The position numbers and the translations under genes are program-made. A stretch of 64,000 bases of DNA, taken from the IMG/VR virus record IMGVR_UViG_3300031760_000017. One strand, written 5' to 3'. A model generated the notes under the pieces. That model searched no databases, was not told the DNA's origin, and saw only the letters and a list, made by a program, of their open reading frames with translations. The stretch comes from a virus. Shown here piece by piece: positions 1,427-18,611 of this stretch (positions within the stretch are counted from its first letter, which is position 1; the number at the start of each line of letters is the position of its first letter).

Positions 1427-1490
1427 ATATACATAAGGTTATGAAAATAACCTCAAACAAAGTTTGAAAAGAGATAAAAGGAGAACAATT

Positions 1491-3014
1491 ATGAATACTT
1501 TTCTTAATCAGATGGTAAGAGACAATAACATTACTCGTACAGAGAACGGTGGTGTAACTCGCAAGACAACAGAATCTAAGGTGCTTGATATGTTTGCGGT
1601 TGGCGGTGCTTATAGAAACCGTTCTGATGCAGATGTTATTCTTCTATTTAAGAACGCATTTGAGGAAAACCGTGAACTTGCTATGAAGTGTCTTTTCTAT
1701 CTTCGTGATGTTCGTGGTGGACAGGGTGAAAGACGTTTCTTCAGAACAGCTTTCCGCTGGCTTTGCGATAAGCATCCAGAAGTAGCAAAGAGAAATCTTA
1801 ATAATGTAAGTGAGTATGGTCGATGGGATGATCTTATTTATGTAGCTGAAGACACTAAGTGCCAGACTGCCGCATTTAATATCATTAAGCATCAGCTTGC
1901 TCTTGATGTTCAGTGCAAGACTCCATCTCTGCTTGCTAAGTGGCTGCCTTCTCAGAATGCTTCTAATAAAGATACTAAGCGTCTTGGTCATGTGCTTGCA
2001 AATTATCTTCATATGACAAACAAGGAATATCGTAAGACTCTTTCAGTACTGCGTGAGCGCATCAACGTTCTTGAACGCCTGATGAGTGCAAACCGTTGGG
2101 ATGAAATCGAGTTTGATAAGATTCCTTCAAGAGCTGGTATTATTTATCGTAATGCATTTGCTCGTCGCGACATTCTTGCCAAGAGATATGAAGCATTTGC
2201 TAAGAGTTCAGAAACCAAGGTAAATGCAGAAGCTCTGTACCCGCATGATATTGCACATAGAGCTTTTGATTATGGAATGAAGCGAGCTGACATTAATGCT
2301 CCTGAGCGTCTCATGCTTCAGAAGTATTGGGATAACCTTAAGGATTTCTATAATGGAAGAGAAGAGAATGGCATTGCGGTAGTTGATGTTTCTGGTTCTA
2401 TGAGTGGTATTCCTATGGAAGCCGCAGTTTCTATGGGAGCCTATATCGCAGATAAGGCTCACGGACCATTTGCTAATCACTTTATTACTTTCTCAGCTAA
2501 CCCTGAGCTAGTAAGATTTGAAGGTGTTGACATTGTTGATAAGTTCAATCGTTGTGTAAAGGCAAATTGGGGTATGAATACTAACGTTGCGGCGGTATTT
2601 GATATGCTTCTAAATACAGCTAAGAAGAAGCATGTAAAGGTTGAAGATATGCCTACTCGAATTTATATCTTCTCAGATATGGAATTTGATAAGTGCATGA
2701 CTCTTGATCCTAATTACCATGATGAATGGGGTTGGGGTTGGCATTCATGCAAGCATCCTTCTTCAACTAAGGAAGTAAATTCTGACCTTGAGAAGATCAA
2801 GAGAAAGTGGAGTGCTGCTGGTTATCAGATGCCTTCTGTAATCTTCTGGAATCTCAACGCTAGAAATAATCGTATTCCTGCTATCGGCGATGGTTTCAGT
2901 TATGTGAGTGGATTCTCTCCTTCCATGATTGATTCTATCCTTAGCGGTAAGGACGGTTATGACCTCATGCTTGATAAGCTCATGTCTAAGCGTTATGCGG
3001 CGGTTGTTGCATAA
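1491..3014 (+). CDS. Ro60-like protein: helical DUF2828/TROVE-like N-terminal region plus C-terminal vWA domain
   Basis: ATG at 1491 follows AAAGGAG; the track's 1464 start is an upstream TTG. N-terminal TENGGV...LDMFAVGGAYR. vWA MIDAS motif VVDVSGSM (DxSxS). FSDMEFD and C-terminal GFSPSMIDSIL parallel Ro60/Rsr features as I recall them. TAG-free and G+C-richer than neighbours. Confidence 0.55.
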   Translation: MNTFLNQMVRDNNITRTENGGVTRKTTESKVLDMFAVGGAYRNRSDADVILLFKNAFEENRELAMKCLFYLRDVRGGQGERRFFRTAFRWLCDKHPEVAKRNLNNVSEYGRWDDLIYVAEDTKCQTAAFNIIKHQLALDVQCKTPSLLAKWLPSQNASNKDTKRLGHVLANYLHMTNKEYRKTLSVLRERINVLERLMSANRWDEIEFDKIPSRAGIIYRNAFARRDILAKRYEAFAKSSETKVNAEALYPHDIAHRAFDYGMKRADINAPERLMLQKYWDNLKDFYNGREENGIAVVDVSGSMSGIPMEAAVSMGAYIADKAHGPFANHFITFSANPELVRFEGVDIVDKFNRCVKANWGMNTNVAAVFDMLLNTAKKKHVKVEDMPTRIYIFSDMEFDKCMTLDPNYHDEWGWGWHSCKHPSSTKEVNSDLEKIKRKWSAAGYQMPSVIFWNLNARNNRIPAIGDGFSYVSGFSPSMIDSILSGKDGYDLMLDKLMSKRYAAVVA

Positions 3015-3026
3015 CTTCTATATATA

Positions 3027-3059
3027 AGGCACGCAGAAATGCGTGCCTTTCTTTTTTTT
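3027..3059 (+). terminator. intrinsic terminator
   Basis: Hairpin AAGGCACGC-agaaat-GCGTGCCTT followed by a T-run. Confidence 0.75.
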
Positions 3060-3101
3060 ATATAAAGAAAAAATCTTAGAACCTGGTTAAATGGTTTTTT
3101 A

Positions 3102-3170
3102 AATGGCTCGGCACGCAGACACTCGTATCTCAGAAACGAAAAGCTGGTTTGGATTTTTTATTTTGCATTT
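3102..3170 (+). repeat. conserved ~68-nt element, copy A (second copy at 60203-60270)
   Basis: AATGGCTCGGCACGCAGACACTCGTA...TTTGGATTTTTTATTTTGCATTT aligns with copy B. There are scattered substitutions and one 1-nt indel. Confidence 0.6.
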
Positions 3171-3261
3171 CTTGGGCAGGAATAAATAAATTAATTTTTC
3201 TAATTTTAATATATAATTAGTGAAAAAATAATTTTTAGCAGGAGGAGCATTATAAAAAACT

Positions 3262-3747
3262 ATGGCAGTATTATTAGAACATTATTCTTTATCTGAAATT
3301 TTTATGTTTACTGTCCTTTTAGCTTTAGCTATAAAAAGTTTAGTATCTTTTTTTGATTGGGCCTATACTTATCTTAAAAAATTCTTTAACAAAGAATATA
3401 AAGAGACTGATGAAAAAAAGGACTTAGAAAAAAGATTACAACATGGCAGCTGGGTTATGACAACTTTACAAACAAATCAAGATATAACTGATCAATATTT
3501 AAAAGAGCTATCTGCAAAGATAGATATGTTAATAGATTCAGATAAAGATGCTATAAAATCTTACATAACAAGCAAGCATCATTACTTTTGTTATTAGGTT
3601 GGATGGATTGATGATTTTAGTTTAGATTGTTTAGAAAAACGTTATTTGCATTATGCAAAAGAAGGAGGAAACTCTTTTATTGAAGGTTTTATGAATGATT
3701 TAAGAAATTTACCAAAAAAACCGCCAACAAATAGTGATAAACATTAA
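3262..3747 (+). CDS. hypothetical membrane protein (N-terminal TM helix), 161 aa with TAG=Gln
   Basis: GGAGGAG RBS. Track ORF 3262-3597 continues in frame through TAG (3598-3600) to TAA at 3745-3747. Confidence 0.55.
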
Positions 3748-3778
3748 AAAATAAAAAGAGATAAAAGGAGTGTTATAA

Positions 3779-5752
3779 GTGGCTTATTTATCAGGTTTAT
3801 ATCCCCCAGTTATTCCAGATGGGTATCCAGCAATGTTACAATAGGGGGAAACAATAGATTCTAAAAAATATTATAAAATATATTTCTCAATACCCAAATT
3901 AAATTCAATTAATAGCATAGATTTAAGATTTATGCAAATATCAATTAGAAAACAATCTACAAATATTTCTGTTTTAGATAAAACTAAATATTTTTCTGAA
4001 ATATTATTAACAGAAGGTTTTTTAGATAATACTAAATCATCAAATGATTATAATTATTATATATTAGTTCCATTAACTGTTTTTGAAAATAATAAGCTTA
4101 ATATAAATTAGTTATATAAAATTCAATTAAGATTTTGTGCAAAAAATTCTAGTATTCAAGAACCAACTTCTTATAGCGGTTCTGCGCTCTCTGTTTGGTT
4201 AAATACATATAATAATAGATTTTCATAGTGGTCAAGAGTTAGCTTGATAAAAGTAATATCAAAACCTACTTTAAATATAAATGGATTAAATGCTGCTTCT
4301 AACTCTCGAATTACTACATCTTTATTTGAAGTTATTGGCTTATTAAGTTTTACTAATTCATCTGAAAGTGAAATTCTAAAAAGTTATCAAATATTTTTAA
4401 AAGATGCTAGTAAAAAAATAATTTTACATCAATCTGATATTATTTATTCAAATAATCTTAATAATCCTAATTAGATTAATTATGCTATTCCATATGAAAT
4501 GTCAGATAGATTAAATTATTATATTACTATACATTATACTACTAATAATCTATATGAAAATACTGTTAATTATCAAATTAATACATATTTTACAAACACT
4601 ACTATAAATCCTCTAAATGTATTTTCTGCAATAGGGAATGAAGAAGATGGATATATAAAACTTACTATAAAAAGCAAGGGCGTTAATTTATATTCTAACA
4701 ATAATATAAAACCATTAGAATTAATTATTAAAAGATCTTCTTCAAAAACTAATTTTACTATATGGGAAGATTGGAAGATTTTTTCTTATACTGAAAAGTA
4801 TATAGATAAATAGTTTTATGATATGACAATAGAAAGCGGAATTTGGTACAAATATGGCTTGCAAATGCGCGGGACTGATTCAAATGGGCGTATAGTAAGA
4901 ACTAATATGCAGTCAATGAACAAACCTGCAATGTGTATTTTTGACAATATGTATTTAACAACAAAAGATAAACAACTAAAAATAAAATTTAACCCCGCAA
5001 TTAGCCAATTAAAATATAATGTATTAGAATCTCAACAAAATACTTTAGGAAGTCAATTTCCATATATTACTAGAAATGGAAATAATTATTATAGAACTTT
5101 TTCTATTGGCGGAATTATATCTGCTTTATCTGAAATTTTACATGAAGATAACTTATATATTTAGACAAGTTTTGAAACTAAAAACTATTGGGAAAAACCT
5201 TATTCTGTTGCGGGAGTTCTTAATAAAAAAGATATGTGGGGCGCTCCTTAGGAAGATATAGATTATAAGAAAAATGGTAATTCTGCAATTATCTTAGAAG
5301 GAGATCTTAATCAAAATACTGAATCAATTTTTGATAGTGTAGGTTTAAATGAGGATGATAATTTAATTCATAATACATAGATTGCGGCAAGCAATAATAC
5401 TTAGATGTTTTCTACAAAAAATAAAAGATTATTTGCTACAGATTCAGAAATTTATAATTAGCAATAGGAATTATATGAAGAATATAATTCAGAACATGGT
5501 ATAAATAAATATCAAGATTTTATTTATGAAAGAGAATTTAGAAAATTAGTTTTTGATTTTTTAAATTCAAATGAAATTAAATTATTCCGTTCAACACAAG
5601 AAGGTAATATCTTAATCAGATTAATTGGAATAAATTTTGAACCAGTTGAAGGAACAAATAGATTAGTTTATTCATTTTCCGCAACCGCAGTTGAAATAGG
5701 GGAAGATACTATTAGTAATTATAAAAAATATAATATTTTAAAGGAGGATTAA
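3779..5752 (+). CDS. tail/baseplate structural protein, 657 aa with TAG=Gln
   Basis: GTG start 8 nt after AAAGGAG. Track ORFs 4244, 4499 and 4823 share its frame. Hand translation shows only TAG interruptions and ends at TAA 5750-5752. Confidence 0.6.
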
Positions 5753-5755
5753 TAT

Positions 5756-7672
5756 ATGAAACATAATTTTCCATATTTACAAGATTCCTCTTTTTTAAAA
5801 TAGTTTGATTAGTTACAATTAAAAGAAAAATTCGTTAAAATTATTGTTTTAAATTTTAAAGAATAGCCAATAGCAGAAATACAAGGGCGTGTAACTGGCG
5901 GCAGTATAAATGTAGATGGATCTTCTAGTATGCGGCGAACCGCAAATCTGTCTGCTATTGTTAAATAGTAGGATTATAATATTTTAGATGTAAGAAATTT
6001 ATTATCAATTAATAAGAAAATAGAAATATTAATTGGCTTTACAAATTTAACTAATAAATATTCTGACTTTCCAATTATTTGGTTCCCTGAGGGAGTATAT
6101 TTAATTTTTTCGCCAAATATTACTCAAAGTGAGACTGGAATTAATATCTCTTTAACTTTAAGGGATAAAATGACGTTATTGAATGGAGAATGCGGCGGTT
6201 CATTTCCCGCATCAGTTACTTTTCATTAGATTGAAGATATTGATGAAAATGGAAATGTAATTATTTCTAATCCAACTATATATCAAATTATTGTTGAATT
6301 AGTAAATCATTTTGGTGAAATCCCGCTGGATAAAATTATTATAAGTGATGTTGACACTAGAATTAAACAAACAGTTCAATGGATTGGTTCTTACCCAGTT
6401 TATTTTGCTAAACATAATAATGAGTTACAAGGTTAGTTTTCTACTAATTATTTTTAGCTCAGACAAACTTTTTCAGATAATGAAATCAAAACATATAATT
6501 ATGGAGATGCTGTTGGATATGTATTAACCGATTTTATTTATCCTGGTGAATTAATAGGAAATGCTGGAGAAAATGTTGTTACTATTTTAGATAAAATAAA
6601 AAATTTACTTGGTAATTTTGAATATTTTTTTGATACAGAAGGTAATTTTCATTTTCAAGAAGTTAAAAATTATCTAAATACAACTTATCCTACAACTTTA
6701 GAAAAAGATCGAGGAAATTTAGATAATTATCTAGTAGACTATGTTGATGGCGCATCTGTATATAGTTTTGAAGATAACAAAATTATTTCATCTATTTCAG
6801 TAGCCCCTTCTTATGAACAAATTAAAAATGATTTTATTGTGTGGGGTAAAAGAACTGAATTAACTGGTGCGGAAGTTCCAATAAGGTATCATTTAGCTAT
6901 TGATAAATGTCCACGAAACAATATATTGCATCAAGGTTTTTATGAATATGTTGATCCATAGGATGATTTAACTAAATATACAAAAAAAGTAATTACTGGA
7001 CAAAACTCAATTAATATTACTTCAAGAGATTATAGAACTGAATTATATTTACAAGGAGTTGAATCTGAAAATACAGCTACCGCAAGTAATTATTATTTTA
7101 TTGAATTAAAGAATTAGTGGCCGAAAATTTATAATATAAAATAGGGAACTTTTTTAGAAGAGTCTTTTGATAATTTAGATTATTTTTTAGATATTATAGA
7201 TACTTCCGCATAGATAGGAAAATTTAGTGTTTAGAATATTGGAAGACGGACAGTAGTTATAAACGATGATTCTATTAATTGTATTTTTGAACCATAGTAT
7301 CCAGAAGTTGTTTTTATAAAAACAGTGGATCAAGATGATCAAGAGTCAAATCCTATAAGAATTGAATGTGAAAATAAAAAAATAGATTATACACAGATAA
7401 AACCAGAAATGTTTAATTTTCTTTTTCAAGGAAATCCTTATAAGTCTGCCTATGAAGAAATAAGGACAGAATTATATCAATATACAACATATAATGAACA
7501 AATAAATTTATCTATTTTACCAATTTATTATTTTGAACCAAATACAAGAATTACTGTAAAGAACAATTAGATTGGGATAGGTGGAGATTATATGATTAAC
7601 AGTTTTTCAATACCTCTTGATATAAATGGCATAATGAATTTAACTTGTATAAAAACATTAGAAAGGATATAA
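5756..7672 (+). CDS. tail/baseplate structural protein, 638 aa with TAG=Gln
   Basis: ATG 5756 is preceded by AAGGAGG. It is in frame with track ORF 7325-7570. Contains QGRVTGGSINVDGSSSMRRTANLS, a phage minor-tail-like motif. Only TAG interrupts the frame, and TAA lies at 7670-7672. Confidence 0.6.
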
Positions 7673-7696
7673 GGTAAATGATTTTTCATTTACCTT
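7671..7696. terminator. bidirectional hairpin between convergent genes
   Basis: AAGGTAAATGA-tttt-TCATTTACCTT. It overlaps the stop codons of the plus-strand gene (7672) and the minus-strand integrase (7690). Confidence 0.55.
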
Positions 7697-8703
7697 ATAT
7701 ATTTTTGATGATCTTGTTTAACTTTTTCATTTGAAACATGTGCATAATGTAAAGTAGTTTCAAGCTAAGAATGTCCTAATACACTTTGAATAGATTCAAT
7801 TGGCATGCCTCTGTTTATCGCAGTTGTTGCCATAGTATATCTAAAACGATGTGGAATAATATCTTCAACACCGCTATTCTAAGTTAATTGATGCAATCTT
7901 TTTCTAACTCCTGAAGTACTTAATCTATTATAAGGGAATCTTAAAGACACAAAAAGAGCTTCATTATTATCTTTTCTTTCATTTATATAGTTTTTTATAC
8001 TAACTACAGTTTTTGCATCTATATAAACAGTTCTCCATTTTCCACCTTTTCCGCAAACAATAATTTCCCTCTTATTTAAATCAACATCTTTAATATTTAA
8101 ACCTACACATTCAGAAATTCTAATACCTGATGAAATTAGTAAATCTACAATAGCAATATCTCTATTTGTTTTACAAGCTCTTCTTATCTATTCTATATCT
8201 ATATCAGTGTACTATTGCCTTGGTTTTACATTAGACTTCTATCTTCTTATTCTTACTGAAGGATCTTTCTAAATATACTCTTCTTCATATAGCCATTTAA
8301 AAAAAGATCGTATAATACTTTTTCTTTGATTTAATGTTTCAGTACTTAATGGTTTACCAGTTTTTTTATTTTTAGATATATATTGAATATATAAACGAAG
8401 ATGATTAACAGTTATTTTTTCTAAAGGTAAACTTAAATAGTTTAACATATCCTATAAACACATTTTATATTGTTCTTTACTTTTTTCTGACATTCTACCC
8501 TATTGCTCTTTTGCCGCCATATAAATATAATAAGCTTCTGGTAATTGATAATTTTCATCTTTTAAATCTACAAAATTTGGTGTGATATTATAATTAAGAG
8601 AATAAGTATTTAATATATTTTTAATTTTATCTATATCCTATCTTTTAAAAAACGGCTATATTTTTAAACAAAATCCTTCAACAAAAGATAAGTTTGAAGA
8701 CAT
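7690..8703 (-). CDS. tyrosine recombinase/integrase (XerC/D-like), 337 aa with TAG=Gln
   Basis: Hand translation gives ...SSGIRISE..., HRFRYTMATT, LGHS-TAG-LETTLHYAHV (catalytic R, HxxR, H and Y). About 10 in-frame TAGs, with no TAA/TGA until 7692-7690. Confidence 0.8.
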
Positions 8704-8734
8704 TAATTAATTCTCCTTTTTTTTAATATTAAAA

Positions 8735-8770
8735 AAAGGAGGACTATATTTAAATATATAGTCCTCCTTT
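8735..8770 (-). terminator. 15-bp perfect hairpin after the tail-fibre operon
   Basis: AAAGGAGGACTATAT-ttaaat-ATATAGTCCTCCTTT, flanked by A/T runs. Confidence 0.6.
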
Positions 8771-8912
8771 ACTCTTTATTTAATTTTATTTTAATTCCAT
8801 AAATAGATAACTTAAATAAAATACTATTTTATTTTTTATTTATTCACTATAATTTCATATCTTCTGTGCTTAATTAAAGTTTTTATTTAAGATCTCTAAA
8901 TGGGCGTTTAGT

Positions 8913-10181
8913 TTACTCACCTAAGATTGTGCCATCGACATACTCAAGACGTTTTACAACAAAATCACGTATCTGCAAAATGTTGTTGTCCGTCTTTCCG
9001 GGGATCGTAATAAAAGCCCCGTCTGCTGTTGTCTCTGCATAATCCTCGGCATAAAGATATGGCGGAATCTGGCTTATGAACTTGTCGAACTCTCCGAGAA
9101 TATTTCCGGCAGAAAGTACGGTTTCTCTAAGTTCCTGATACCTTGCTATTACATCGCTCTGGAAAAGATTCCAAATACGATAATGCAGGTAGTTGTCCTC
9201 TTGAAACTGCGTATATCCGTTATAATTCTCTTGGAAGATTGTGTTATAAGGACGCCATGTTACTTCTTCCTGTCGCACAAGTCCGGTCATTCCCCACGTA
9301 GAATCCAAATCGTACAAACCTGTGTACCACTGTTCTGCATCATACGTAAAAAATGTCTGATTCTTTGCGATCAGGTCAATGGCACATATAGCCCTTACGA
9401 ATATATGCATATCAATGAGCGATTGCAGGTCAATCTTTGAATCTATCCCGGCTATAAACTGCGCATCTGTTGAATTACATATAAACGCCAGTACGGAAGT
9501 CCAACTATCGGCAATGACTGTTGGCATTTCATCGTGAAGTTCATCAGACCATTTTCCATTCATTGTCGGCTGTCTGAAAAACATCGTGTTATCATCAGCA
9601 AGCCCATCTGTCTGAATAATGCAGTTTGTTTCCTCGTCAGAATCCACACCGTACATACCGTCTTTCGGTAAATTCCATGTATAAAGACCATAGTATACAC
9701 CGTTGTGGTAGACCTTGACCGGGAATCCATCAATCGCAAGATTGCTCTTTCTCAGCGTAGCAGGTAGGGATGCAAAATTACTCCTTGACCTGACTGCCTG
9801 TGACCAAAGACGGGCATTAACAATATTTCTTGCATGGCTGTGGTCTATCCAGTTTGCTTTAAGGACAAACTTATTTCTAGGTTTATCCCAATCTCTGAAA
9901 AGACGTTTGCTCTTTGATTTTCTTGCGCTGTCTGTAAAAAGATTTATCGTGTAATTTTTCTTTGGATAGTAGGCAGATGAATCTCCTTGTACTTTAGCTG
10001 TAGCGTAATCCGTGAATGATTCCGTTGCGCTCTTGTATGTTATCTTAATGTTGCTCTTGCCTTCTGTCTTTGTCGCATACAGTTCACCCTCGATGGACAC
10101 AACTGGAATATCACCGTCATTGGGTTCATATCCGCCTACGTTTACAATATTTCCATGATAATCATAAATATAAGCCATCAT
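8913..10181 (-). CDS. CotH-family (kinase-like) protein, probable tail-fibre or receptor-binding accessory
   Basis: Intact 422-aa ORF in the standard code. LKANWIDHSHARNIVNARLW and the following segments resemble CotH. G+C-richer and TAG-free. Confidence 0.6.
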   Translation of the reverse strand: MMAYIYDYHGNIVNVGGYEPNDGDIPVVSIEGELYATKTEGKSNIKITYKSATESFTDYATAKVQGDSSAYYPKKNYTINLFTDSARKSKSKRLFRDWDKPRNKFVLKANWIDHSHARNIVNARLWSQAVRSRSNFASLPATLRKSNLAIDGFPVKVYHNGVYYGLYTWNLPKDGMYGVDSDEETNCIIQTDGLADDNTMFFRQPTMNGKWSDELHDEMPTVIADSWTSVLAFICNSTDAQFIAGIDSKIDLQSLIDMHIFVRAICAIDLIAKNQTFFTYDAEQWYTGLYDLDSTWGMTGLVRQEEVTWRPYNTIFQENYNGYTQFQEDNYLHYRIWNLFQSDVIARYQELRETVLSAGNILGEFDKFISQIPPYLYAEDYAETTADGAFITIPGKTDNNILQIRDFVVKRLEYVDGTILGE

Positions 10182-10189
10182 ATCACCCC

Positions 10190-11014
10190 TTAAACAGTAA
10201 TATTCGTTCCGACAAGTTCATTGATTTCCTGATTGGATAATGCAACTTTATAGATTTTATAGAAATCTATTGTGCCTGACCACGGTTTAACTGTGCCACT
10301 TTCAACTATGCCAATCTTATAATTACCTACAGCGTCAGCGGTACTCGTTATAATGTCCTCTAAAGAGTAAACAAGGTCATCATCAACATAACTATGTATC
10401 AATAAGTGCTTTGAAAAGTTTCTTACTACGATAATTATATCGTGCGCAACATCCATACTAAAAGGTGTAGAGTTACCTCCAAGGTTTTTAAATGTTGTCC
10501 GTGTCATAATTTGTTCATTAGATACGGTTGTTGCAATTCTCAAGCCTGTAACGACACTTCCATTTAATCTGGATTTTGCGCTTGCGTCCAGTAGGAATGA
10601 AGCCTCAGTGGTAGGCTCCCACGTCCCCTTTATCAGGATCGTAAAATCCTCGTTATCCATATCATTTCTTGCAGGTACTCCGGTATCGACTGTAAATGCA
10701 CTCATATCTGTTCCATACGGCAACTCATAAATAACCCGGCTGTCTACACTCATGCTGAACAATGCATCTTTCAGGGCTTTGCCGTACTTCTCACCGTCCT
10801 CGGTATCCCAATATACATGCTCAAAACAGTCTATAAGGGCTGTCTTTACATTATCCGGCATAATGCTATATGCGGGAATTACAAGACCGTCTGAGCCGAT
10901 AGCAAGCACCCTCCCGGCATTTATAGCTCCCTGCTGTTTGTCAACTTTCTGACCATTTGAAATAGCTTCAATAAGTGCGTCAACCTTTGCACCTTCCCAA
11001 ATATTAACTGCCAT
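10190..11014 (-). CDS. LamG/concanavalin-like domain tail protein
   Basis: Intact 274-aa ORF. The C-terminal ...IDFYKIYKVALSNQEINEL is typical of Laminin_G_3-type domains. G+C-richer and TAG-free. Confidence 0.5.
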   Translation of the reverse strand: MAVNIWEGAKVDALIEAISNGQKVDKQQGAINAGRVLAIGSDGLVIPAYSIMPDNVKTALIDCFEHVYWDTEDGEKYGKALKDALFSMSVDSRVIYELPYGTDMSAFTVDTGVPARNDMDNEDFTILIKGTWEPTTEASFLLDASAKSRLNGSVVTGLRIATTVSNEQIMTRTTFKNLGGNSTPFSMDVAHDIIIVVRNFSKHLLIHSYVDDDLVYSLEDIITSTADAVGNYKIGIVESGTVKPWSGTIDFYKIYKVALSNQEINELVGTNITV

Positions 11015-12087
11015 TATACACCTCCGTTATATGTAACCGTTGTTTCGAGTGTTGTAAGATTGGTTACGATTGTCAGTGATTCTCCTGTGTTCAGCGTTCG
11101 GACTTCTGTTATTGTTCCAGTACCATAAGTAAAAGCGTCCGTTCTTATAGCTACCGAATTACGACTGTGAGTAACCTGAGAAACCTTCCCATCGGTGAAC
11201 GTATATGCCTGAGTTGTATCAGGAACATCATCACTAAGAAGCATTAACTTATGTGTTAAATCCCCGGTAGTGCTGACCCATGCATTCCATGTAGAAGTAA
11301 ATGCACTATATGTTCTAACCCATACTTCTATGCTTGTTCTTCCCGACTTGTAAGTATAGGTCAACCGCTGAAACGTCCTACCTACATTGTTTCCAAAAAC
11401 TTCATGCCAAACTTCCAAAATTCCATGCTCACTATCGGCAGTAGGTTTGTGAAGATATGAATTATCAGTGTGAAGCATATACACACCGGGAGTCAATACG
11501 GTATTCAAGTCCGTTCCGTCAGCAAGCCTTTGAGGTTCTGTTAATGCACCTAAATCAGCCTTTATTTCCGTAAACTCATCTCCAACAGCTTTCGCATCAG
11601 CTGCAGTTCCAGTTATAGAAAGCGTATCATCTACTTCAATTTGTTTAGCATCAATAGCAGCATTTACTTCGGCTTTCGTATAAGTATTTGATGCGTTTGC
11701 TTTCTTATTTAACTCTGTTTTAACTGCCAACGCATCTGCAGCGGCACCTTCAATAGTTAAAGTTTTATCAACAATAACCGCACTTCCTACAGGATTTACA
11801 TTATCATCTAACCAATCAGTAGTATCCGCACTAATTTGTTTTCTTAAAAAATCATTTAATCTTGAATTAAATTCATTAGTGCTAATTTTATCTCCATCCA
11901 ATTCATCAATCTGATGTTGGAGATTTCCTTTTCCAGAAGAAGAAATATCGACACTTCCTAAAGCATCTAATAAAGTATGATTATTTTCATCCCACTAAAC
12001 ATTTTGGACATTCACACTAATAGGAATTTCTCCAGTATAAGTGCCATTCTTTTGCTTTATTTTTATAGCCTTTATTTTATCAGCCAT
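11014..12087 (-). CDS. tail fibre protein (mosaic: AT-rich N-terminus with one TAG, G+C-richer TAG-free C-terminus)
   Basis: ATG 12087 follows AAGGAGG and is in frame with track ORF 11014-11901 (offset 186). TAG at 11997-11995 (NV-Q-WDENNH). Repeated G(A/T)AADA(L/K)AV fibre motifs. Confidence 0.7.
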
Positions 12088-12106
12088 AAAACTTCTTCCT
12101 CCTTTC

Positions 12107-12424
12107 TTAAACATAATTTTCTAATTTATTAAAAATTTTATTAGTCACATATATAATTTCATCTCTATAAGTTGAAATTAAATCCGCAACTAACTCCTAT
12201 TGTTCAATAGTAAGATTTACATTATAAGAAAACATTGCAGCATGTGTAATTTCATGACATAAAACTTTCCTTAATAGTTTACCAGTTAGCGTCTCATTTA
12301 TGTATATAGTTCTAGTCAAATTATCACATGCACCTATTGAAAAATCTCCAGACTTTCTTCTTAAAAGAGGAAAGTCTGGAGATACAAAAGCAAGTTTCCA
12401 ATATGTGTTATTTATTAAAAACAT
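12107..12424 (-). CDS. HExxH zinc-metalloprotease-like protein (ImmA/IrrE- or SprT-like)
   Basis: LCHEITHAAMF motif. Track ORF 12197-12424 continues through TAG to TAA at 12109-12107. Confidence 0.45.
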
Positions 12425-12449
12425 TAAGAAATTTTGTTTGCTAGCGTTG

Positions 12450-12611
12450 TCATTTTTTGACGTAAGGTTTATTACCCATATAATTATTATATGGGGTGTT
12501 GCTCAATAACATGTTATTGCTCCCATAAGGAAATTGTACTTGCGGTTGCCCCATCATTCCGCTCATAAGCTGAGGCTGTTGCAAATAGTTAGAATTATTG
12601 TAATTTGCCAT
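12450..12611 (-). CDS. small Q/N/P-rich protein (53 aa)
   Basis: GGAGG RBS, then MANYNNSNYLQQPQLMSGMMGQPQVQFPYG..., ending with TGA at 12452-12450. Confidence 0.4.
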   Translation of the reverse strand: MANYNNSNYLQQPQLMSGMMGQPQVQFPYGSNNMLLSNTPYNNYMGNKPYVKK

Positions 12612-12757
12612 TACTTTCCTCCAATCGAGATCTCTTTTTACTTTTTGAATTATTTAACAGTTACTAAATTTTCGCGAAAAAAGAAAGAGTTTTTTCTTTC
12701 CACATATATATAAAAATTTCTACTATTAAATTAATTACATTTGACCAAAAAATTGAG

Positions 12758-12786
12758 TTGACAAAAATAAAAATTTTTTGTATAAT
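12758..12786 (+). promoter_or_regulatory. sigma70-type promoter (TTGACA-N17-TATAAT)
   Basis: -35 at 12758-12763 and -10 at 12781-12786, with TG immediately upstream of the -10. Confidence 0.65.
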
Positions 12787-12810
12787 ACAGATAAGAAAGA
12801 GGTGTAATTT

Positions 12811-13299
12811 ATGAAAATATTATCATTAGATTTATCAACAAAATCTTCTGGTTGGTGTGTAGGAGAAGATGGAGTTATAAAATCTCACGGATGCATTACC
12901 GCATCATCAAAAGATGTGATTCAAAGAATTATAAAGATGCGGAGTTAGTTATCTGCAATTATATAGAAAAATAAAATAGATAAAATTGTTATGGAATAGG
13001 TACGACCTGACTTTAATTCACATACGAGTAAGGTATTAATGTGGCTTCAAGCAGCAATTGCAATTGCCGCACACTAGATTAATCCGAAGATTTAGTTTTA
13101 GTTCATCGGACCTAGTGAATGGCGTGCCGCATTAAAATTTAAGCAAGGTCGCGGAGTAAAAAGAGATAATTTAAAATCACAAGATATACAATATGTTAAA
13201 GATAAATATAGCACAGATGTAAATGATGACTAGGCAGACGCAATATGTCTTTTTGACGCTTATTCAGAAAAATTTGATAATGAAATAAATTGGGAATAA
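12811..13299 (+). CDS. RuvC-like Holliday-junction resolvase, 162 aa with TAG=Gln
   Basis: ILSLDLSTKSSGW, VME-TAG-VRP and DD-TAG-ADAICLFDAY match the RuvC acidic tetrad context. Seven in-frame TAGs. Ends at TAA 13297-13299. Confidence 0.7.
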
Positions 13300-13331
13300 A
13301 AAAGACTAATCTTATTCAAGATTAGTCTTTT
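13300..13331. terminator. bidirectional intrinsic terminator
   Basis: AAAAGACTAATCTT-attc-AAGATTAGTCTTTT lies between convergent genes. Confidence 0.7.
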
Positions 13332-13339
13332 TTATTTTA

Positions 13340-13576
13340 TTATTCTTCTTCTTTTTTATCCTATTCTTTTAAATCATCTAAAGGAATCTTATTAACCTTT
13401 CTAGATTTCATAGATTGAACAGTATAATCATTCTAAATCTTCTGTTTTTTTACTATTTTCCAAATCTATTGAAATAAAAAGAATTTAATTAAAAAAGGAA
13501 GCTATGATTTATTAAACTCCTAAATAATTTTCTATTGAAAATTATAACACATTAAATTATAATCATTTTCATTCAT
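13340..13576 (-). CDS. hypothetical protein, 78 aa with TAG=Gln
   Basis: AAGAGG RBS, then MNENDYNLMCYNF..., six in-frame TAGs, and TAA at 13342-13340. Confidence 0.4.
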
Positions 13577-13603
13577 TTTTAATACCTCTTATCTATAATT
13601 ATA

Positions 13604-16600
13604 TCAATCTATATAACCAACCCATCCTCTATACGGACTACCATATGAATGTCCATCATACCATCTTCCAAGAGCATAACCCCATTCAAAATAAAGAATC
13701 CGAGGAGAACTTGAATCATTTGGATCTGCATGCTCGATCCATATATCTGTAACAATCTGTCCCCAAGAAACTTTTTGATTATCATAAGTAAAATAATCAG
13801 CTTCTAATTCTTCAGTTGAAAGATAATCTGATCTAATTTGTGAAGCAGTCAAATAATCTGATCTAATTTGTGAAGCAGTTAGATAATTTGCATTAAGAGT
13901 TTGAGTAGAAACATAATTTGCTTTAACTTGATTAAATTCTGCTTTATCAGCATATAATGTATCACATTTTATAATCATCTTATCAGTCAAACTTCCAGAA
14001 TAATAACTGTTGGTCATATCACTAGCCATAACAGTATTAGGATCTAACCAAGAGTCACCTGAGCCTCCTATAGTAAAACCATATCCATTTAAGGACTGTC
14101 CACTCATAACCTATCCATAAATTTTCCCAAAATAAGCATCTCCATTTGCGCTAATAGACCAAGAAGGACCAGATATACTACCCTCATAATCAAGAGAAAG
14201 ATTACCAGCTTTTAAATCATAAGTATTAATATTCCATCCGCCTATCTGTCCGGAGCTTGCATTTATCTCGCCTGATAAATTTACATTAGATGCTGTTAGA
14301 TTACCATTATTATCAACAGAAAATCTAGAACCAAGAGCAATTTCATCAGTTCCAATATAAACGCTTCTATTATTTCCTTTTGTTCCAAAAGAAATTGAAC
14401 TTAAATTAGCTGTAAAATCTCCTTTAATAGTCCAATGATTTCCAGATAAATACCCCATTTCTAAAGTCGCAGGTTTTATTGTTCCATTATCTGAATATCT
14501 ATTAGTAAATCTAAAAGAATTTCCTAAAGATAAGCCAAGAGGAGATAAATGAAAACCATCAGCTGTATTAGTTAATTCTGTTTTATTTCCACTATAAATA
14601 CGACTACGATCAGCTTCTAAAGTAATTTTTTGACTATTTAAAGAATTACTTTCAGTACCAATTAATTTAGTACCATTTATAGTCCAACCGCCAATTTGAC
14701 CAGATGTTGCGGTAATTTTCCCACTTAAATCTGTATTAGTAGCAACTAAATTTCCATTAGAATCTACTTTAAAACGTCCTGAACCATATCTTATTTCAGG
14801 TTTTGTTAAATCAATTAATAAACCTTGACCTTTTTCATTACTAGATGTATAATTAGATGGTAAGCCATTTTCATTATAATTTTTCCAAAAATTACCACTA
14901 TATAATAAAGCATGACTAGTACTTGGATCTATTACAATTTGCCCATTGTTAGCTTTTCCAAATAACGCAGAACCATTTTCACTATTTAAAAAGAAAGTTC
15001 TATCACCTTTATTATATCCTAATAATCCAATGTCAGGAGCAGTCTTATCTGGATTTTTAACTTCACCCATTAAAACTCCAGTAAAACTATTATCATTTTC
15101 TTTTTTACCTGCGCCCATTTGCGGAGCTAAGATATAACCACCCTTATCATCTAATTGAATACTGTTGCCATCCCAAGCGTTAATATGAGCTAATCCATAT
15201 TTATTTAATAAGAAATGAATAGGAATATGAATTCTAGCAATAACCTAATTATTATTAACACTTTTAACAGTACATACTAAAGCATTATTAACACACTAGC
15301 CGCTATACCTTGAAGCTGGTCGACATATGCATTGATTCTTTTGTAAATTTTTAGTATAATAACTCTAAGTTAATAACTCTAAATCATGAGAATCGTTATT
15401 ATAAGGAAACTAATCATACTAACCTACTTCAATCTAATGTGTCTGTATTATATTTATAACATCACCATTAACTGAATAACTAAAATTAACTGCATGACTT
15501 CCAGAAACTAATGATATATCTTCCCATTTATTATTTATTTTTTCTTTAATAATAAATTCAAAAGGTTTAGAATTGTCATATTGAGGAGATAAACCATCAG
15601 AACTATACATGACATATCTAAATCCAGTATAATCTTTTAATTCAATTCTATAATTATCATTTTTAACCCATGCAGTTGCAATAGGCAATGTACTATAATA
15701 TGAGTGCTGATTATAAGTTATTGTGCATTTTAGAATATCTGCTAATGTTTGCGTAAAAGTAGTGTCTATTGGATGTGCTGTTGTATTCACATATGAAATA
15801 AGTCCAGTATTAGCATTTACAATATTAAAAGAACTTTCATCAGTAAAATTTGTTTTATAAAAATTCTTTAACATGTTCCAAGTTACAGAACTAGGACTAG
15901 TTACACCATCTTTTGGATTTGCGGCAGTTGAAGTTCCTTCCCAAATCAAATCTCCACTTTGCCATAGCTGAGCTTTAAATAAGGTTTTTCCAACATTAAA
16001 TCCTGCAGTTTGCTACTATCCAGTTCCGCTTGCCGCAAAATTAATAATATAAGAATTAGAATCTCCTATTGCTGTTAAAGTAGGGTAAATAGGTAATATT
16101 TTTGCTGTACTATTTGGAACAATTTTCACAATATATTGGGTCCCATTTGTACCAGGTTCTCCCTATTTTACAAAAGTAAAGTTAGTTTTTGCAACTAAAT
16201 TAATCTACTTATAAGTTACAAATAATTCAATCTGATTATTTAATTTTTTTACATCATATTTTTGTGCAATATCATAAACTAAAGTATCTAAATTTGAATA
16301 ATATCTATAACCTTCCTATTCAACTGCCCATGTTTTATTGTTTTTGTCAACTAATAAAGTATTTTCAATAGGAATTTTCCAAGTAACTTGTCTTTTCTTT
16401 ATATCATCAGTAATATCATTCCCTAAATTATCATATACCTTAAAAGTTAAAGCTAAAATCTATTGCGGATCATCTAAACTTTTACTATTAGGCGCAATAC
16501 CATTCTAATTATATTTATATGATGCAGAGCCATTTTCAATAATTAGTGAATATATATTTTCCGCCTATAAAGAATTACTTAAAGTAATTGAAGCTGTTCC

Positions 16601-18295
16601 TATATAATTATGATTTAAATCTTCTACCGTACATTTAAATATAGCAAATCCATCTATTGCATTAACTTGTAAATCATAAATTTTATTTTTACTTACTCTT
16701 TGTGTATATTTAAAATTAGAAAGAGTAGTTTCATAATTATTTAGTTCTTGTTGTGCTTCATTTTTAAATCTAGTTCCAGCTTGAATACTATTTTTTAATG
16801 ACTGCAAAGCATTATAAGTAGTTGTATAGTTATTATTTAATTCAGTCGTTGTTTCTAAAGCTTCTAATCCACAGTTATTATTTTGCCAAGCCCAATAGTA
16901 ATTATAATTTTGTATATTTTCAACTCCATTTACTTTACAAGTTAATGTTGGATGTCCAATATCATAATAAAATTGAGTGCCACTATCTGACTATATTATA
17001 ATATCTGCCGCATTAGCTTGTAAATTTTGAATTGTGATTTCCTTAGAAATAACTGTATTATCATATAAAACCGCAACTTTTAATTTATTTTCTCTTGCAG
17101 TTGCATCTTCTCGATAAACTATATAAGTACTATCTCCAGGCACCCATTCTATTTGAGGAGCTTGAGTTGCAGTTCCAGGTGAAATAATATTTTTTTCATT
17201 TACACATTTCCAACCGCGTCCTAAATGTTGATTATAATACTAACTATTTGCAAAAATACCAACATTTTCTTTTCCCCAATAGAAAGATAAATTTTGAGAA
17301 TCTGATACTAATTTTCCTTTTATTCTTACCTGTGCGGTAACTATTAATTCTTCTTTTGGAGAAGGATTTGTAGCTTGTTTAAAGAAAATACCTTTTGGAG
17401 TATAAAATGAAATAGATATTCCATTATTTTCTTCATCGCTTTTTCTTATAGCACCTAAAATTTCAACAGAAGAAATAAAGATATTTACTCCATTATCTGT
17501 TGATCTTAAAGGATAATGCTAAGGTGTCCCGGATGCTGAATTAGGAAAATCCTAGCAAAAGATTTCAATAGAATCAATTCTAACAAAGTTTTCTCCATCT
17601 ATTTCAAAAATCTAATATTGTCTAGTATTATGTTCAAATCTATAAGGATTACCTGTCATATTATCTTCATCAAGCGTATAGCTTTTAATTATCTATTTAG
17701 AATTTCCATTAGATTCTAAATTAGAATTATCATTAAATACTAAATTAAAAGTTATACCATAATGACCTTGATATTGTTCCTATAATGGAATAGTATTTCT
17801 TATAGTCATTCCTGCAATTAAAGAAGATGCTTTTTTAATATATTGATTTAAAGCATCATTATCTAATTTTAGCGGTGATGAGCTAACTCCATATTTATAA
17901 ATAACATAACTATATTTCTTATATTTTGTAGCTAAATAATAAATGCCGCTTGTTGTAACGCAATTCTTACCTAATATATCATATGCCTACTATCCAACCG
18001 CTTCAGAAACATAGTTAATTCCAAGTTTCTAAGTTGTACCAAGAATAGTTTTATCTTTGCTCATATCATTTCCTGGAACTAAAATATAAACATATGCACC
18101 TTTAGAATAAGTAATATCTGCCGAACCCGCATACGCAAAAAAAGTTGTATCTTGATAACGACATTTATATTTTCCTATTGTCGCATCTTCACAAGAAATA
18201 ATTTGAGCTTGAATAGTTTTATCATATCCAGCTTTTTTTATTGAATTATTAGTTAATAATTCAATCGCGTCTAAAATTTTCTAATTAACGCCCAT
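13604..18295 (-). CDS. giant tail hub/fibre protein, 1563 aa with TAG=Gln
   Basis: Track ORFs at 16807, 15949, 15118 and 14107 all share the frame of ATG 18295. Hand translation of 15118-15434 and other stretches shows only TAG interruptions. The N-terminus is OB-fold-like (GAYVYILVPGNDMSKDKTILG). The C-terminus has repeated SGQIGGW(T/N)IN motifs. Confidence 0.65.
13823..13890 (-). repeat. 30-nt tandem repeat (about 2.3 copies) inside the giant tail gene
   Basis: ATAATCTGATCTAATTTGTGAAGCAGT(C/T)A(A/G) occurs twice plus a partial copy. It encodes YLTASQIRSD repeats. Confidence 0.8.
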
Positions 18296-18383
18296 CTTTT
18301 ATCTCCTTATATCTCTTGTCTTTTATATTATAACATAAATTTTTTATTTCTTCAAACCAGTTTAAAGAATATTATGTTAAATT

Positions 18384-18548
18384 TCATATTTTTCTTGTTT
18401 TTAGAACTCCATCATAATTATATCTAGTTATCTAAAAAAAATCTTGTTTTGAAATTTTTTCTTCTTTAACTAAATTTATCATATCTATGAGTTCATAAGC
18501 TCCACAATTCCATTTTTCTTGAATTTTAATTAAATTAAATTCTTTCAT
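18384..18548 (-). CDS. hypothetical small protein (54 aa)
   Basis: GGAGAAATAA then ATG. MKEFNLIKIQEKWNCGAYELIDM..., with one TAG, ending at TGA 18386-18384. Confidence 0.4.
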
Positions 18549-18611
18549 TTATTTCTCCTTTTAAACAATAAAATAAGGAAATAGTATTAAAATACTATTT
18601 CCTTATTATTT

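Follow-up and report, generated by a model that had tools for sequence, protein, structure and literature searches.

A TAG-free fibre-tip cassette in a TAG-recoded phage, probably imported from standard-code phages

The stretch examined here, called the window throughout, is 64,000 nucleotides (nt) of virus record IMGVR_UViG_3300031760_000017, and the locus of interest is a series of minus-strand genes in which an M78/SprT-like gene is followed by a tail-fibre gene, a lectin gene, a CotH-family gene, and the gene of a tyrosine recombinase, or integrase (Table 1). All coordinates are those of the whole stretch, and names of the form L005 denote related or comparison contigs. The distal part of the fibre gene, the lectin gene, and the CotH gene together make up what we call the cassette (8913-11546, minus strand). 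We find it very probable that this 2.6-kb, three-gene tip cassette was imported from standard-code phages into a phage that is recoded at TAG. This is in essence what a sequence-only reading of the window had proposed, and that interpretation is supported after three corrections: the junction lies at about codon 181 of the fibre gene, TAG content is a coarse clock, and some relatives carry TAG in their versions of the cassette.

Table 1. Features of the fibre locus (GC3, G+C fraction at third codon positions; aa, amino acids).
Feature	Position	Strand	Description
M78/SprT-like HExxH gene, 105 aa	12107..12424	-	Directly 5' of the fibre gene; backbone flank of the variable locus
Fibre gene, 357 codons	ATG 12087, stop 11014	-	
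Native fibre part, codons 1-181	11547..12087	-	N-terminal anchor and helical Ala-rich shaft with two AADA-type repeats; TAG at codon 31
Left crossover patch (proposed)	11547..11576	-	About 30 nt encoding (E)FTEIKADLG; common to recipient-like backbones and L070
Distal fibre (probably imported), codons 182-357	11014..11546	-	Beta-rich head and ~75-aa C-terminal domain; GC3 0.324; no TAG
Lectin gene, 274 aa	10190..11014	-	C-terminal ConA/LamG-like jelly roll (predicted); GC3 0.365; no TAG
CotH-family gene, 422 aa	8913..10181	-	Ends in TAA; GC3 0.410; no TAG
Right crossover patch (proposed) and 24-nt element AGTAAACTAAACGCCCATTTAGAG	8894..8917	-	Overlaps the CotH stop; arms CTAAA/TTTAG, 6-nt spacer CGCCCA
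Intrinsic-terminator-like hairpin and T-run	8735..8770	-	Closes the M78-like/fibre/lectin/CotH transcription unit
Tyrosine recombinase (integrase)	7690..8703	-	Directly downstream of the cassette; Phage_integrase E=2.8e-37

The window derives from a large, AT-rich phage (about 29% G+C, hereafter GC) that reads TAG as a sense codon in its late genes. Reading through TAG lengthens the longest open reading frame from 2,349 to 8,667 nt, and two intact tail genes of 2,883 and 1,563 aa hold 71 and 26 in-frame TAGs, respectively; the same giant genes (2876-2883-aa tape-measure proteins) were called in the contigs of relatives. TAG is kept at 129 of 142 positions compared among relatives, and 6 of the 13 variable sites pair with CAG or CAA, the commonest partners, while TAG sites in the integrase align with Q, E, D, or N in homologues. 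In TAG-bearing late genes, the glutamine-type codons divide into CAA.62, CAG.07, and TAG.32, versus.59,.40, and.01 in TAG-free genes, which indicates that TAG has replaced CAG almost fully in one expression class only. The codon is most likely read as Gln, and both the Gln codon pattern and the concentration of TAG in late genes fit published descriptions of code-15 phages. Of the codons with native composition, roughly 40% sit in TAG-free genes, which are presumably TAG-free for other, regulatory reasons. Megablast of positions 3000-19000 against GenBank phages gave no match, and a distant search with a 638-aa gene gave just 66-135-nt DNA matches to Phass-1 and one uncultured phage; with matches this short and a GC content of 44.5%, Phass-1 was rejected as a close relative.

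The cassette stands apart from this genome in its composition, as had been noted from the letters alone, and the observation holds on quantitative analysis. In 1-kb windows, GC is 0.38-0.42 over positions 9001-12000 versus 0.24-0.31 in the flanks. In a 200-nt profile, it steps from 0.17-0.28 to 0.44 near 8900 and, in ascending coordinates, drops from 0.40 around 11600 to 0.29 around 11900. GC3 ranges from 0.324 to 0.410 among the three cassette segments (Table 1), compared to 0.141 in native late genes, 0.18 in native TAG-free genes, and a backbone range of 0.12-0.18. The earlier claim of different Leu and Arg codons is likewise borne out: Leu codon choice differs between cassette and native genes (chi2=142, p=8e-29), with TTA accounting for 7-21% in the former and 42-71% in the latter, as does Arg codon choice (p=3e-6), and Gln codon usage is also distinct (CAG-rich). 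The synonymous composition and codon usage are, in other words, unlike those of the host genome, as is seen in horizontally acquired islands. None of the 872 cassette codons is TAG, although the late-gene rate of 1.95% predicts about 17 (P(0)=3.6e-8); given the 25 Gln-type codons in the cassette, P(0)=6.5e-5. The cassette had been described as containing no TAG at all, which is true in frame but not at the trinucleotide level, where 27 out-of-frame TAGs occur on the coding strand.

Within the fibre gene, codons 1-181 have a GC3 of 0.166, as in the backbone, and a likelihood change point falls after codon 186, at nt 11529. The native part includes an in-frame TAG at 11997-11995 (codon 31) that is kept in all relatives. 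The sequence-only reading had correctly identified this TAG and a join inside the fibre shaft, but it confined the native, AT-rich part to the first ~60 codons and saw a gradual shift toward higher GC from about 11900. By GC3 and change point, the native part instead reaches about codon 181, and the join lies right after the motif ...AADAKAVGDEFTEIKADL. The gradual rise in total GC from about 11900 arises because the Ala-rich shaft repeats raise GC at first and second codon positions, and not from foreign DNA. Identity of the native fibre part reaches 99-99.9% with L005 and L066 and, up to 11731, 96% with L001, L002, and L006. Every alternative cassette diverges right after ...GATTTAG, and at least five cassette types follow that one shaft motif. 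Directly upstream of the fibre, the M78-like gene has weak Pfam matches to Peptidase_M78 and SprT; L001 and L005 encode the product with 98% aa identity, and the TAG at codon 76 is conserved. Just upstream of the fibre operon, the interval between this gene and a RuvC-like gene (12424-12811) is another variable spot, to judge from the gene content of relatives: L001 (4023-7503), L002, and L006 have about 2.4-3.5 kb of extra genes there that the window lacks (a 245-aa GIY-YIG gene and others of 160, 78, 258, 151, and 193 aa), which are moderately GC-richer and TAG-poor.

Comparison with related recoded phages shows that the region between the two junctions is replaceable, as proposed earlier. 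Contigs L005 and L066 are 99.0% and 99.9% identical to window positions 12426-11547, and L005 is 98.4% identical to 8917-4418; between the junctions, they encode an SGNH-esterase fibre tip together with a 213-aa protein that bears no relation to those of the window. Similarly, L069 is 96% identical to window positions 11784-11547 and 99.6% identical to 8917-8451, and the sequence in between encodes another tip and a GH16/Big_2 protein. L067, a short contig with the left flank only (92% nt identity), diverges at 11550 into a 641-aa fibre, and L006 has a further fibre tip and a GDSL lipase. The cassette is therefore missing from the near-identical backbones of L005, L066, and L069, with precise boundaries at about 11547 and 8917, and a conserved N-terminal anchor is combined with alternative distal modules at one locus. 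Two other relatives, L001 and L002, have fibre/lectin/CotH cassettes whose proteins are 39-83% identical to those of the window, with flanking genes at 93-98%. Each cassette ends at the stop codon of its own last gene, and all clade cassettes have GC3 values of 0.25-0.40, above the backbone, and are poorer in TAG than the backbone. Inversion or shufflon switching (Gin/Cin, Rci) was rejected, as positions ~7000-13600 contain no long high-identity inverted repeats and the locus holds no second fibre C-terminus. As a separate observation, the alternative-cassette fibre gene of L069 (334-1275) closes with a penultimate TAG, a single further codon, and TGA; the gene may have been imported with TAG as its stop, and translation would now run one residue past it.

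A close copy of the cassette is found on a different backbone. The lectin homologue P0242 led to contigs L070, L071, and L072, which come from three different assemblies. L070 and L071 have 43-44% GC and a GC3 that is uniform at 0.38-0.47, all of their genes lack in-frame TAG, and L070 is 92% identical to window positions 11576-8901 over 2,689 nt (distal fibre 93-96% identical in nt; CotH and lectin proteins 97% and 92% identical in aa); L071 also carries the cassette, likewise with 92% nt identity to the window. The L070 backbone differs: its fibre has 213 aa, of which 28 residues form the N-terminus, the genes upstream are others, and its integrase is only 56% identical to that of the window. 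The cassette matches its own neighbours in composition in L070, L071, and L073, whereas in the window it differs from its flanks by 0.2-0.27 in GC3. A close homologue thus resides in a compositionally matching foreign genome, in line with the standard-code donor that the sequence-only reading had proposed. When L070 is set beside the relatives, both junctions can be resolved: window identity to L005 stops at 11547 while that to L070 starts at 11576, and identity to L070 ends at 8901, exactly past the spacer CGCCCA of the 24-nt element, while that to L005 and L069 begins at 8917. Given these switch points, both crossovers must lie in stretches common to the two sides, of about 30 nt on the left and 17 nt on the right. 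Among the differences between the window and L070, 109 have A/T in the window versus 73 of the reverse (p=0.009), which suggests that the window copy has drifted slightly toward the AT composition of the recipient since import; substitutions polarised with L001 as outgroup gave a weak, mixed signal.

Searches with the cassette products for donor lineages yielded, besides L070 and L071, CotH proteins of 71-77% identity in siphovirus-like contigs that read well in the standard code. These homologues in IMG/VR were retrieved with an alignment as the query; single-protein IMG/VR scans with CotH and with the fibre N-terminus gave no matches, and the phage clade itself seems to be absent from the IMG/VR collection scanned. 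The CotH gene retains about 40% GC (GC3 of 0.39-0.41) in genomes of 29%, 47%, and 53-56% GC, with neighbouring genes reaching a GC3 of up to 0.85 in the GC-richer ones, such that it forms a low-GC island in standard-code phages of 47-56% GC and a high-GC island in the window. In a neighbour-joining tree (200 bootstraps), the window and L001 form a pair (99.5%) beside standard-code L033, L035, L008, and L037 (85-88%), while L002 groups with standard-code L009 and L011 (98-100%). The gene tree, in this neighbour-joining analysis, is incongruent with the backbone, and the two placements imply at least two exchanges of CotH between the recoded clade and standard-code phages. The bacterial CotH homologues lie in metagenome-assembled genomes (MAGs) of Bacillota, the closest being a rumen Lachnospiraceae MAG with 53% identity, and record names suggest that the samples are from ruminant or other gut environments.

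At the right junction lies a discrete 24-nt dyad, AGTNAACTAAACGCCCATTTAGAG, which is identical save for position 4 in the window, L005 (at 2459), L069 (2353), L073 (3730), L074 (603), and L075 (4847). In L073, L074, and L075 (44-48% GC), the sequence on both sides of the element is unrelated to the window. Where there is sufficient sequence, the element follows the last fibre or receptor-binding protein (RBP) gene and lies 190-240 nt (769 nt in L074) upstream of an integrase gene, and the element-adjacent integrases in standard-code contigs are 53-63% aa identical to that of the window. Variants occur 210-240 nt upstream of integrase homologues in L077, L079, and L080, and in L077 the inverted arms match perfectly over 7 nt and enclose a 6-nt spacer; three further integrase-homologue loci lack the element. 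The integrase gene is not present in L001, L002, and L006, and in L001 and L002, the element has 4 substitutions per 24 nt each while the surrounding spacer DNA is conserved. From its sequence and position, the element is probably a candidate core (attachment-site, att-like) site of this integrase family, and it may contribute to cassette exchange. The att-like core AACTAAACGCCCATTTAGAG was absent from the bacterial loci fetched for CotH, although no dedicated search for a host attB was made. An Rfam scan of 8600-9000 returned nothing near any gathering score. The hairpin between the element and the integrase has a 15-bp stem followed by a T-run, on both strands, and is kept in relatives. The left junction sequence TAAAGGCTGATTTAG was considered as a second recombinase site but is not relied on here, as it encodes the conserved peptide IKADL and the pattern TAAA-N6-TTTAG is not enriched in the window (7 occurrences versus 4.4 expected).

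The integrase itself is part of the backbone by composition (GC3 of 0.12) and contains 10 in-frame TAGs, all of which are conserved in L005. This is the opposite of the pattern in the recoded temperate phages Garnet and Topaz, whose integrases avoid TAG (bioRxiv 10.1101/2021.08.26.457843). An integrase with 10 TAGs would be made only after the code switch and hence may not act in establishing lysogeny. Such a TAG-rich gene beside a conserved att-like element is also at odds with the view that recoded phages need integrases that can be translated under the standard code. In L068, a distant relative, a 138-aa integrase remnant with 3 TAGs occupies the same position, and its location beside the fibre suggests that the fibre-integrase link is old in the lineage.

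The sequence-only reading had further proposed that TAG density can date the residency of a gene. In all seven clade versions of the cassette, TAG/(TAG+CAG) is 0-0.18, versus 0.82 in native late genes. CotH codon 241 is CAG in the window and L070 but TAG in L001, whose lectin gene also has a TAG where L073 has CAG, and L002 has a single TAG each in its fibre tip and its CotH gene. TAG codons in relatives with the same cassette had been named as evidence against import, and L001 and L002 do, taken literally, have them, but these copies are diverged (58-83% aa identity) and fit a gain of TAG after import. Because fibre codon 31 already requires suppression, the lack of TAG downstream cannot serve standard-code expression, and history is the better explanation for the paucity of TAG. 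The dating proposal thereby finds qualitative support, but as a clock the paucity of TAG is coarse: across cassettes, the TAG fraction is not monotonic with GC3 (the numbers are small), and about two-fifths of native codons are in TAG-free genes regardless. Conversion of CAG to TAG is possible only in a recoded recipient and makes an import non-exportable to standard-code phages. Elsewhere in the window, a second GC-rich, TAG-free gene (1464-3014, plus strand; GC 0.41, GC3 0.33) encodes a DUF2828/DUF7788 protein that is vWA/TROVE-like and matches phrog_850, 'RNA-binding protein'. It adjoins four tRNA genes (Gln-UUG, Gly, Arg, and Cys; 396-1395) and has the same place in relatives; either an older import or an early gene with high expression is possible.

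The products of the cassette presumably make up the end of the fibre that recognises carbohydrate, judging by the predicted lectin fold, the esterase and GH16 proteins in alternative cassettes, a CotH-fibre fusion in L068, and the position in the tail operon. The lectin protein had been labelled LamG-like. Its match to Pfam Laminin_G_3 (18.8 bits, E=0.002) is below the cut-off of 27.6, but close homologues carry PF13385 matches, and the AlphaFold2 model is confident (predicted local distance difference test, pLDDT, >90 for residues 120-260). In Foldseek, 261 PDB entries matched at E<=1e-3, with lectin domains of pentraxin, CBM40, and sialidase type at the top and E of ~1e-7 for ConA-like, pentraxin, and CBM40 matches, and the predicted jelly-roll, ConA-like lectin fold is well supported by this modelling. 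The CotH label is secure, with PF08757 matched over profile positions 2-322 of 322 (98.7 bits vs. a cut-off of 23.8, E=5.9e-28). In siphovirus-like contigs, CotH genes follow the TMP, Dit, and Tal genes and precede the holin/endolysin lysis genes, and in L068, the CotH domain is fused to a 795-aa fibre. That gene region (L068 2410-6133) is itself of note, as the fibre has internal tandem repeats and an N-terminus 52% identical to that in the window.

The fibre model has pLDDT values of 80-95 over the C-terminal 170 residues, and a PDB sequence search with the fibre gave no meaningful match. Fibre homology is modular, with aa 164-275 and aa 276-357 recurring apart in many other proteins. Residues ~276-357 (11014-11240, minus strand) make up a separately mobile module of about 75 residues that is 60-87% identical in more than 100 proteins of differing architecture, some of which bear BppU_N or CBM_5_12 domains; it might dock the downstream lectin protein or act on it in a chaperone-like way. 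A literature search for CotH in phage tails returned nothing specific. In the passage of PMC7821199 that cites Nguyen et al. 2016, Bacillus spore-coat CotH relatives are described as atypical protein kinases. The proteins here share the strong family match (PF08757) with the spore-coat proteins, but their setting is the tail-fibre operon of a phage, where some are fused to the fibre, and not a spore coat, and any kinase activity of theirs is putative. Invariant Asp, Lys, and Asn columns occur in the CotH alignment; for the B. subtilis protein, the residues of interest are D228 and D251 (PMC7821199).

We propose that the locus has a fixed part, consisting of the M78-like gene and fibre codons 1-181, and an exchangeable part, the distal tip cassette. 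The cassette would have entered by recombination from a pool of standard-code Bacillota phages of about 40-44% GC, of the L070/L073 type. The left crossover would have occurred in the ~30 nt encoding the end of the shaft motif, ...FTEIKADLG, and the right crossover in the ~17 nt at the stop codon, within the 24-nt element upstream of the integrase. Within the clade, ordinary homologous recombination would then swap cassettes via the long conserved flanks, which would account for at least four unrelated cassettes at identical junctions on backbones that are 92-99.9% identical. The import would be young relative to the backbone and would therefore retain donor GC3 and donor Leu, Arg, and Gln codons (CAG-rich) and lack TAG, while older copies in relatives would have started the conversion of CAG to TAG. 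Of all this, the composition, the junctions, the alternative cassettes, the donor-like copy, and CotH polyphyly are shown directly, and the direction and mechanism of transfer, receptor binding, and the reading of TAG as Gln are inferred.

Several points weigh against this proposal. The direction of transfer is read from composition only, and the standard-code phages of 47-56% GC are not the source, given that CotH is a compositional outlier there as well. L070 is only a 4.4-kb contig, and the standard code of L070, L071, and L073 is inferred from the lack of in-frame TAG in ~2,000-3,000 codons. The 8% nt divergence from L070 implies that the true donor is unsampled, and patches of 17-30 nt are very short for classical homologous recombination. 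Within the 64-kb window, there is no suppressor tRNA(CUA), the tRNAs seen being Gln(UUG), Gly, Arg, and Cys. Finally, receptor binding by the cassette products is putative: a fold search with the fibre model, a monomer of a probably trimeric protein, found no convincing neighbour (best, the RBP of phage NF5, E=0.013), and PDB sequence searches with CotH and a CotH profile found no solved structure.

A different route, which we regard as possible but unlikely, is that the integrase assists the exchange. The 24-nt dyad would then be a tyrosine recombinase core at which the right junction is made, with the second crossover in the fibre motif, and the partners could be two attP sites of co-infecting phages, or a prophage already in the cell and a phage that superinfects. 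Six contexts that otherwise have nothing in common share an identical element, each time located after the last RBP gene and before a homologous integrase, and the element or its variants lie at a fixed 190-240 nt upstream of the integrase gene in L070, L075, L077, L079, and L080. The perfect arms in L077, the halt of L070 homology exactly past the spacer, and the decay of the element by 4/24 in two integrase-less relatives with conserved intergenic DNA nearby all point in this direction, as does a similar TAAA-N6-TTTAG at the left junction. The left match, however, is conserved no better than adjacent codons and its loose pattern is not enriched in the window, and L001, L002, and L006 have different cassettes even though they lack the integrase. 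Integrase homologues also occur at three loci without the element, and no attB or recombination product was seen (among bacterial loci that were fetched for CotH, not by a dedicated attB search). The window integrase, moreover, could be produced only under active suppression.

A broader version of this idea, about which we are equally doubtful, is that the tip cassette, the 24-nt dyad, and the integrase constitute a portable exchange platform that is common to standard-code temperate Bacillota phages (43-49% GC) and the recoded clade. The late-acting, TAG-full integrase would cut in at the att-like 3' core, and a crossover in the shaft motif would complete the swap, whatever the code. The difference in code would then act as a one-way valve, such that TAG-free cassettes may enter but cannot leave after CAG has become TAG.

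Transfer in the reverse direction, with a cassette native to the recoded clade and exported while still TAG-free, seems quite improbable. TAG-free genes ending in TAA would function in either code, clade members L001 and L002 have the same cassette type, and CotH is an outlier in most standard-code hosts too. Yet it is in the window that the cassette departs from its flanks and in L070, L071, and L073 that it blends with its neighbours, the closest backbone relatives (L005, L066, and L069) lack it, the window copy is AT-shifted relative to that of L070, and the clade CotH genes are polyphyletic within standard-code lineages. An assembly chimera, in which reads of two co-occurring phages were joined at short shared sequences, is still harder to sustain. 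Patches of 17-30 nt common to different phages in similar samples are indeed where assemblers can cross over, but two compensating mis-joins would be needed, as both cassette flanks belong to the same backbone. The reading frame is also kept with an intact fibre, the independent assemblies L001-L004 have the same fibre/lectin/CotH order on this backbone, and a cassette 8% different from L070 does not consist simply of L070 reads. Least credible is an old resident without transfer, its GC and lack of TAG held by selection (on amino-acid composition or pre-switch expression): regulatory avoidance of TAG does exist in native genes, late-gene-confined recoding is documented (PMC7886860; bioRxiv 10.1101/2021.08.26.457843), and GC1 and GC2 are raised in the native shaft too, but the difference is at synonymous sites while native TAG-free genes keep a GC3 of 0.18, fibre codon 31 needs suppression regardless, and the comparative data already contradict it through relatives whose homologous cassettes tolerate TAG, sister backbones with other cassettes, and a 92% identical copy on a foreign backbone.

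Exchange of fibre and RBP modules is known from the T-even gp37/gp38, the lambdoid stf/tfa, and the RBP head swaps of lactococcal P335/936 phages, and Streptococcus thermophilus phages have variable regions flanked by collagen-like repeats; the system itself is thus not new. As in those cases, a conserved N-terminal anchor is combined with variable distal domains, accessory genes travel with the distal part, junctions lie at conserved motif-coding DNA, and close relatives have unrelated cassettes at one locus. What differs here is that the partners use different genetic codes and are 14-27 GC points apart, that the cassette includes a CotH-family protein, which is no characterised RBP component, and that the 3' boundary is a discrete 24-nt element by an integrase rather than a coding motif. 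Sharing of a host-recognition module between phages of different families has been described in Alteromonas phages (PMC10579305). The window also resembles gut phages with TAG recoding (code 15), whose recoded genes are restricted to the late, structural, and lysis classes (bioRxiv 10.1101/2021.08.26.457843; PMC7886860; PMC9523058; PMC10607447): it is AT-rich, with TAG as a sense codon concentrated in structural genes, TAG-free early genes, and mostly TAA stops. Unlike in those studies, where the distribution of TAG is interpreted as regulation, a TAG-free late block is explained here by recent import.

Compositional genomic islands that ameliorate over time are a concept reportedly due to Lawrence and Ochman. 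The cassette is like such islands in its atypical GC3 and codons, its sharp boundaries, its absence from sister genomes, and its slow drift to the recipient composition, but it offers an additional discrete character in the conversion of CAG to TAG. To our knowledge, exchange of fibre modules across genetic codes has not been shown before. What is new is that a cross-code transfer is resolved, that exchange with standard-code phages happened repeatedly, that CotH keeps a constant composition in genomes of 29-56% GC, and that an att-like element with a TAG-rich integrase stands at the cassette boundary.

The locus provides a natural example of gene flow across a genetic-code boundary, in which recipient-like and donor-like sequences are both known and the junctions are located to within 30 nt. 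Because a cassette that gains TAG cannot work in a standard-code phage, the barrier should be asymmetric. Imports of this kind are recognisable by the double signature of GC3 and the CAG/TAG ratio, and annotation should expect TAG-free, standard-looking islands within recoded late regions. Host prediction could make use of the tip cassette and its standard-code relatives, which here point toward Bacillota of ruminant or gut samples, as judged by record names. Stop-codon recoding, then, does not cut these phages off from the general pool of host-range modules.

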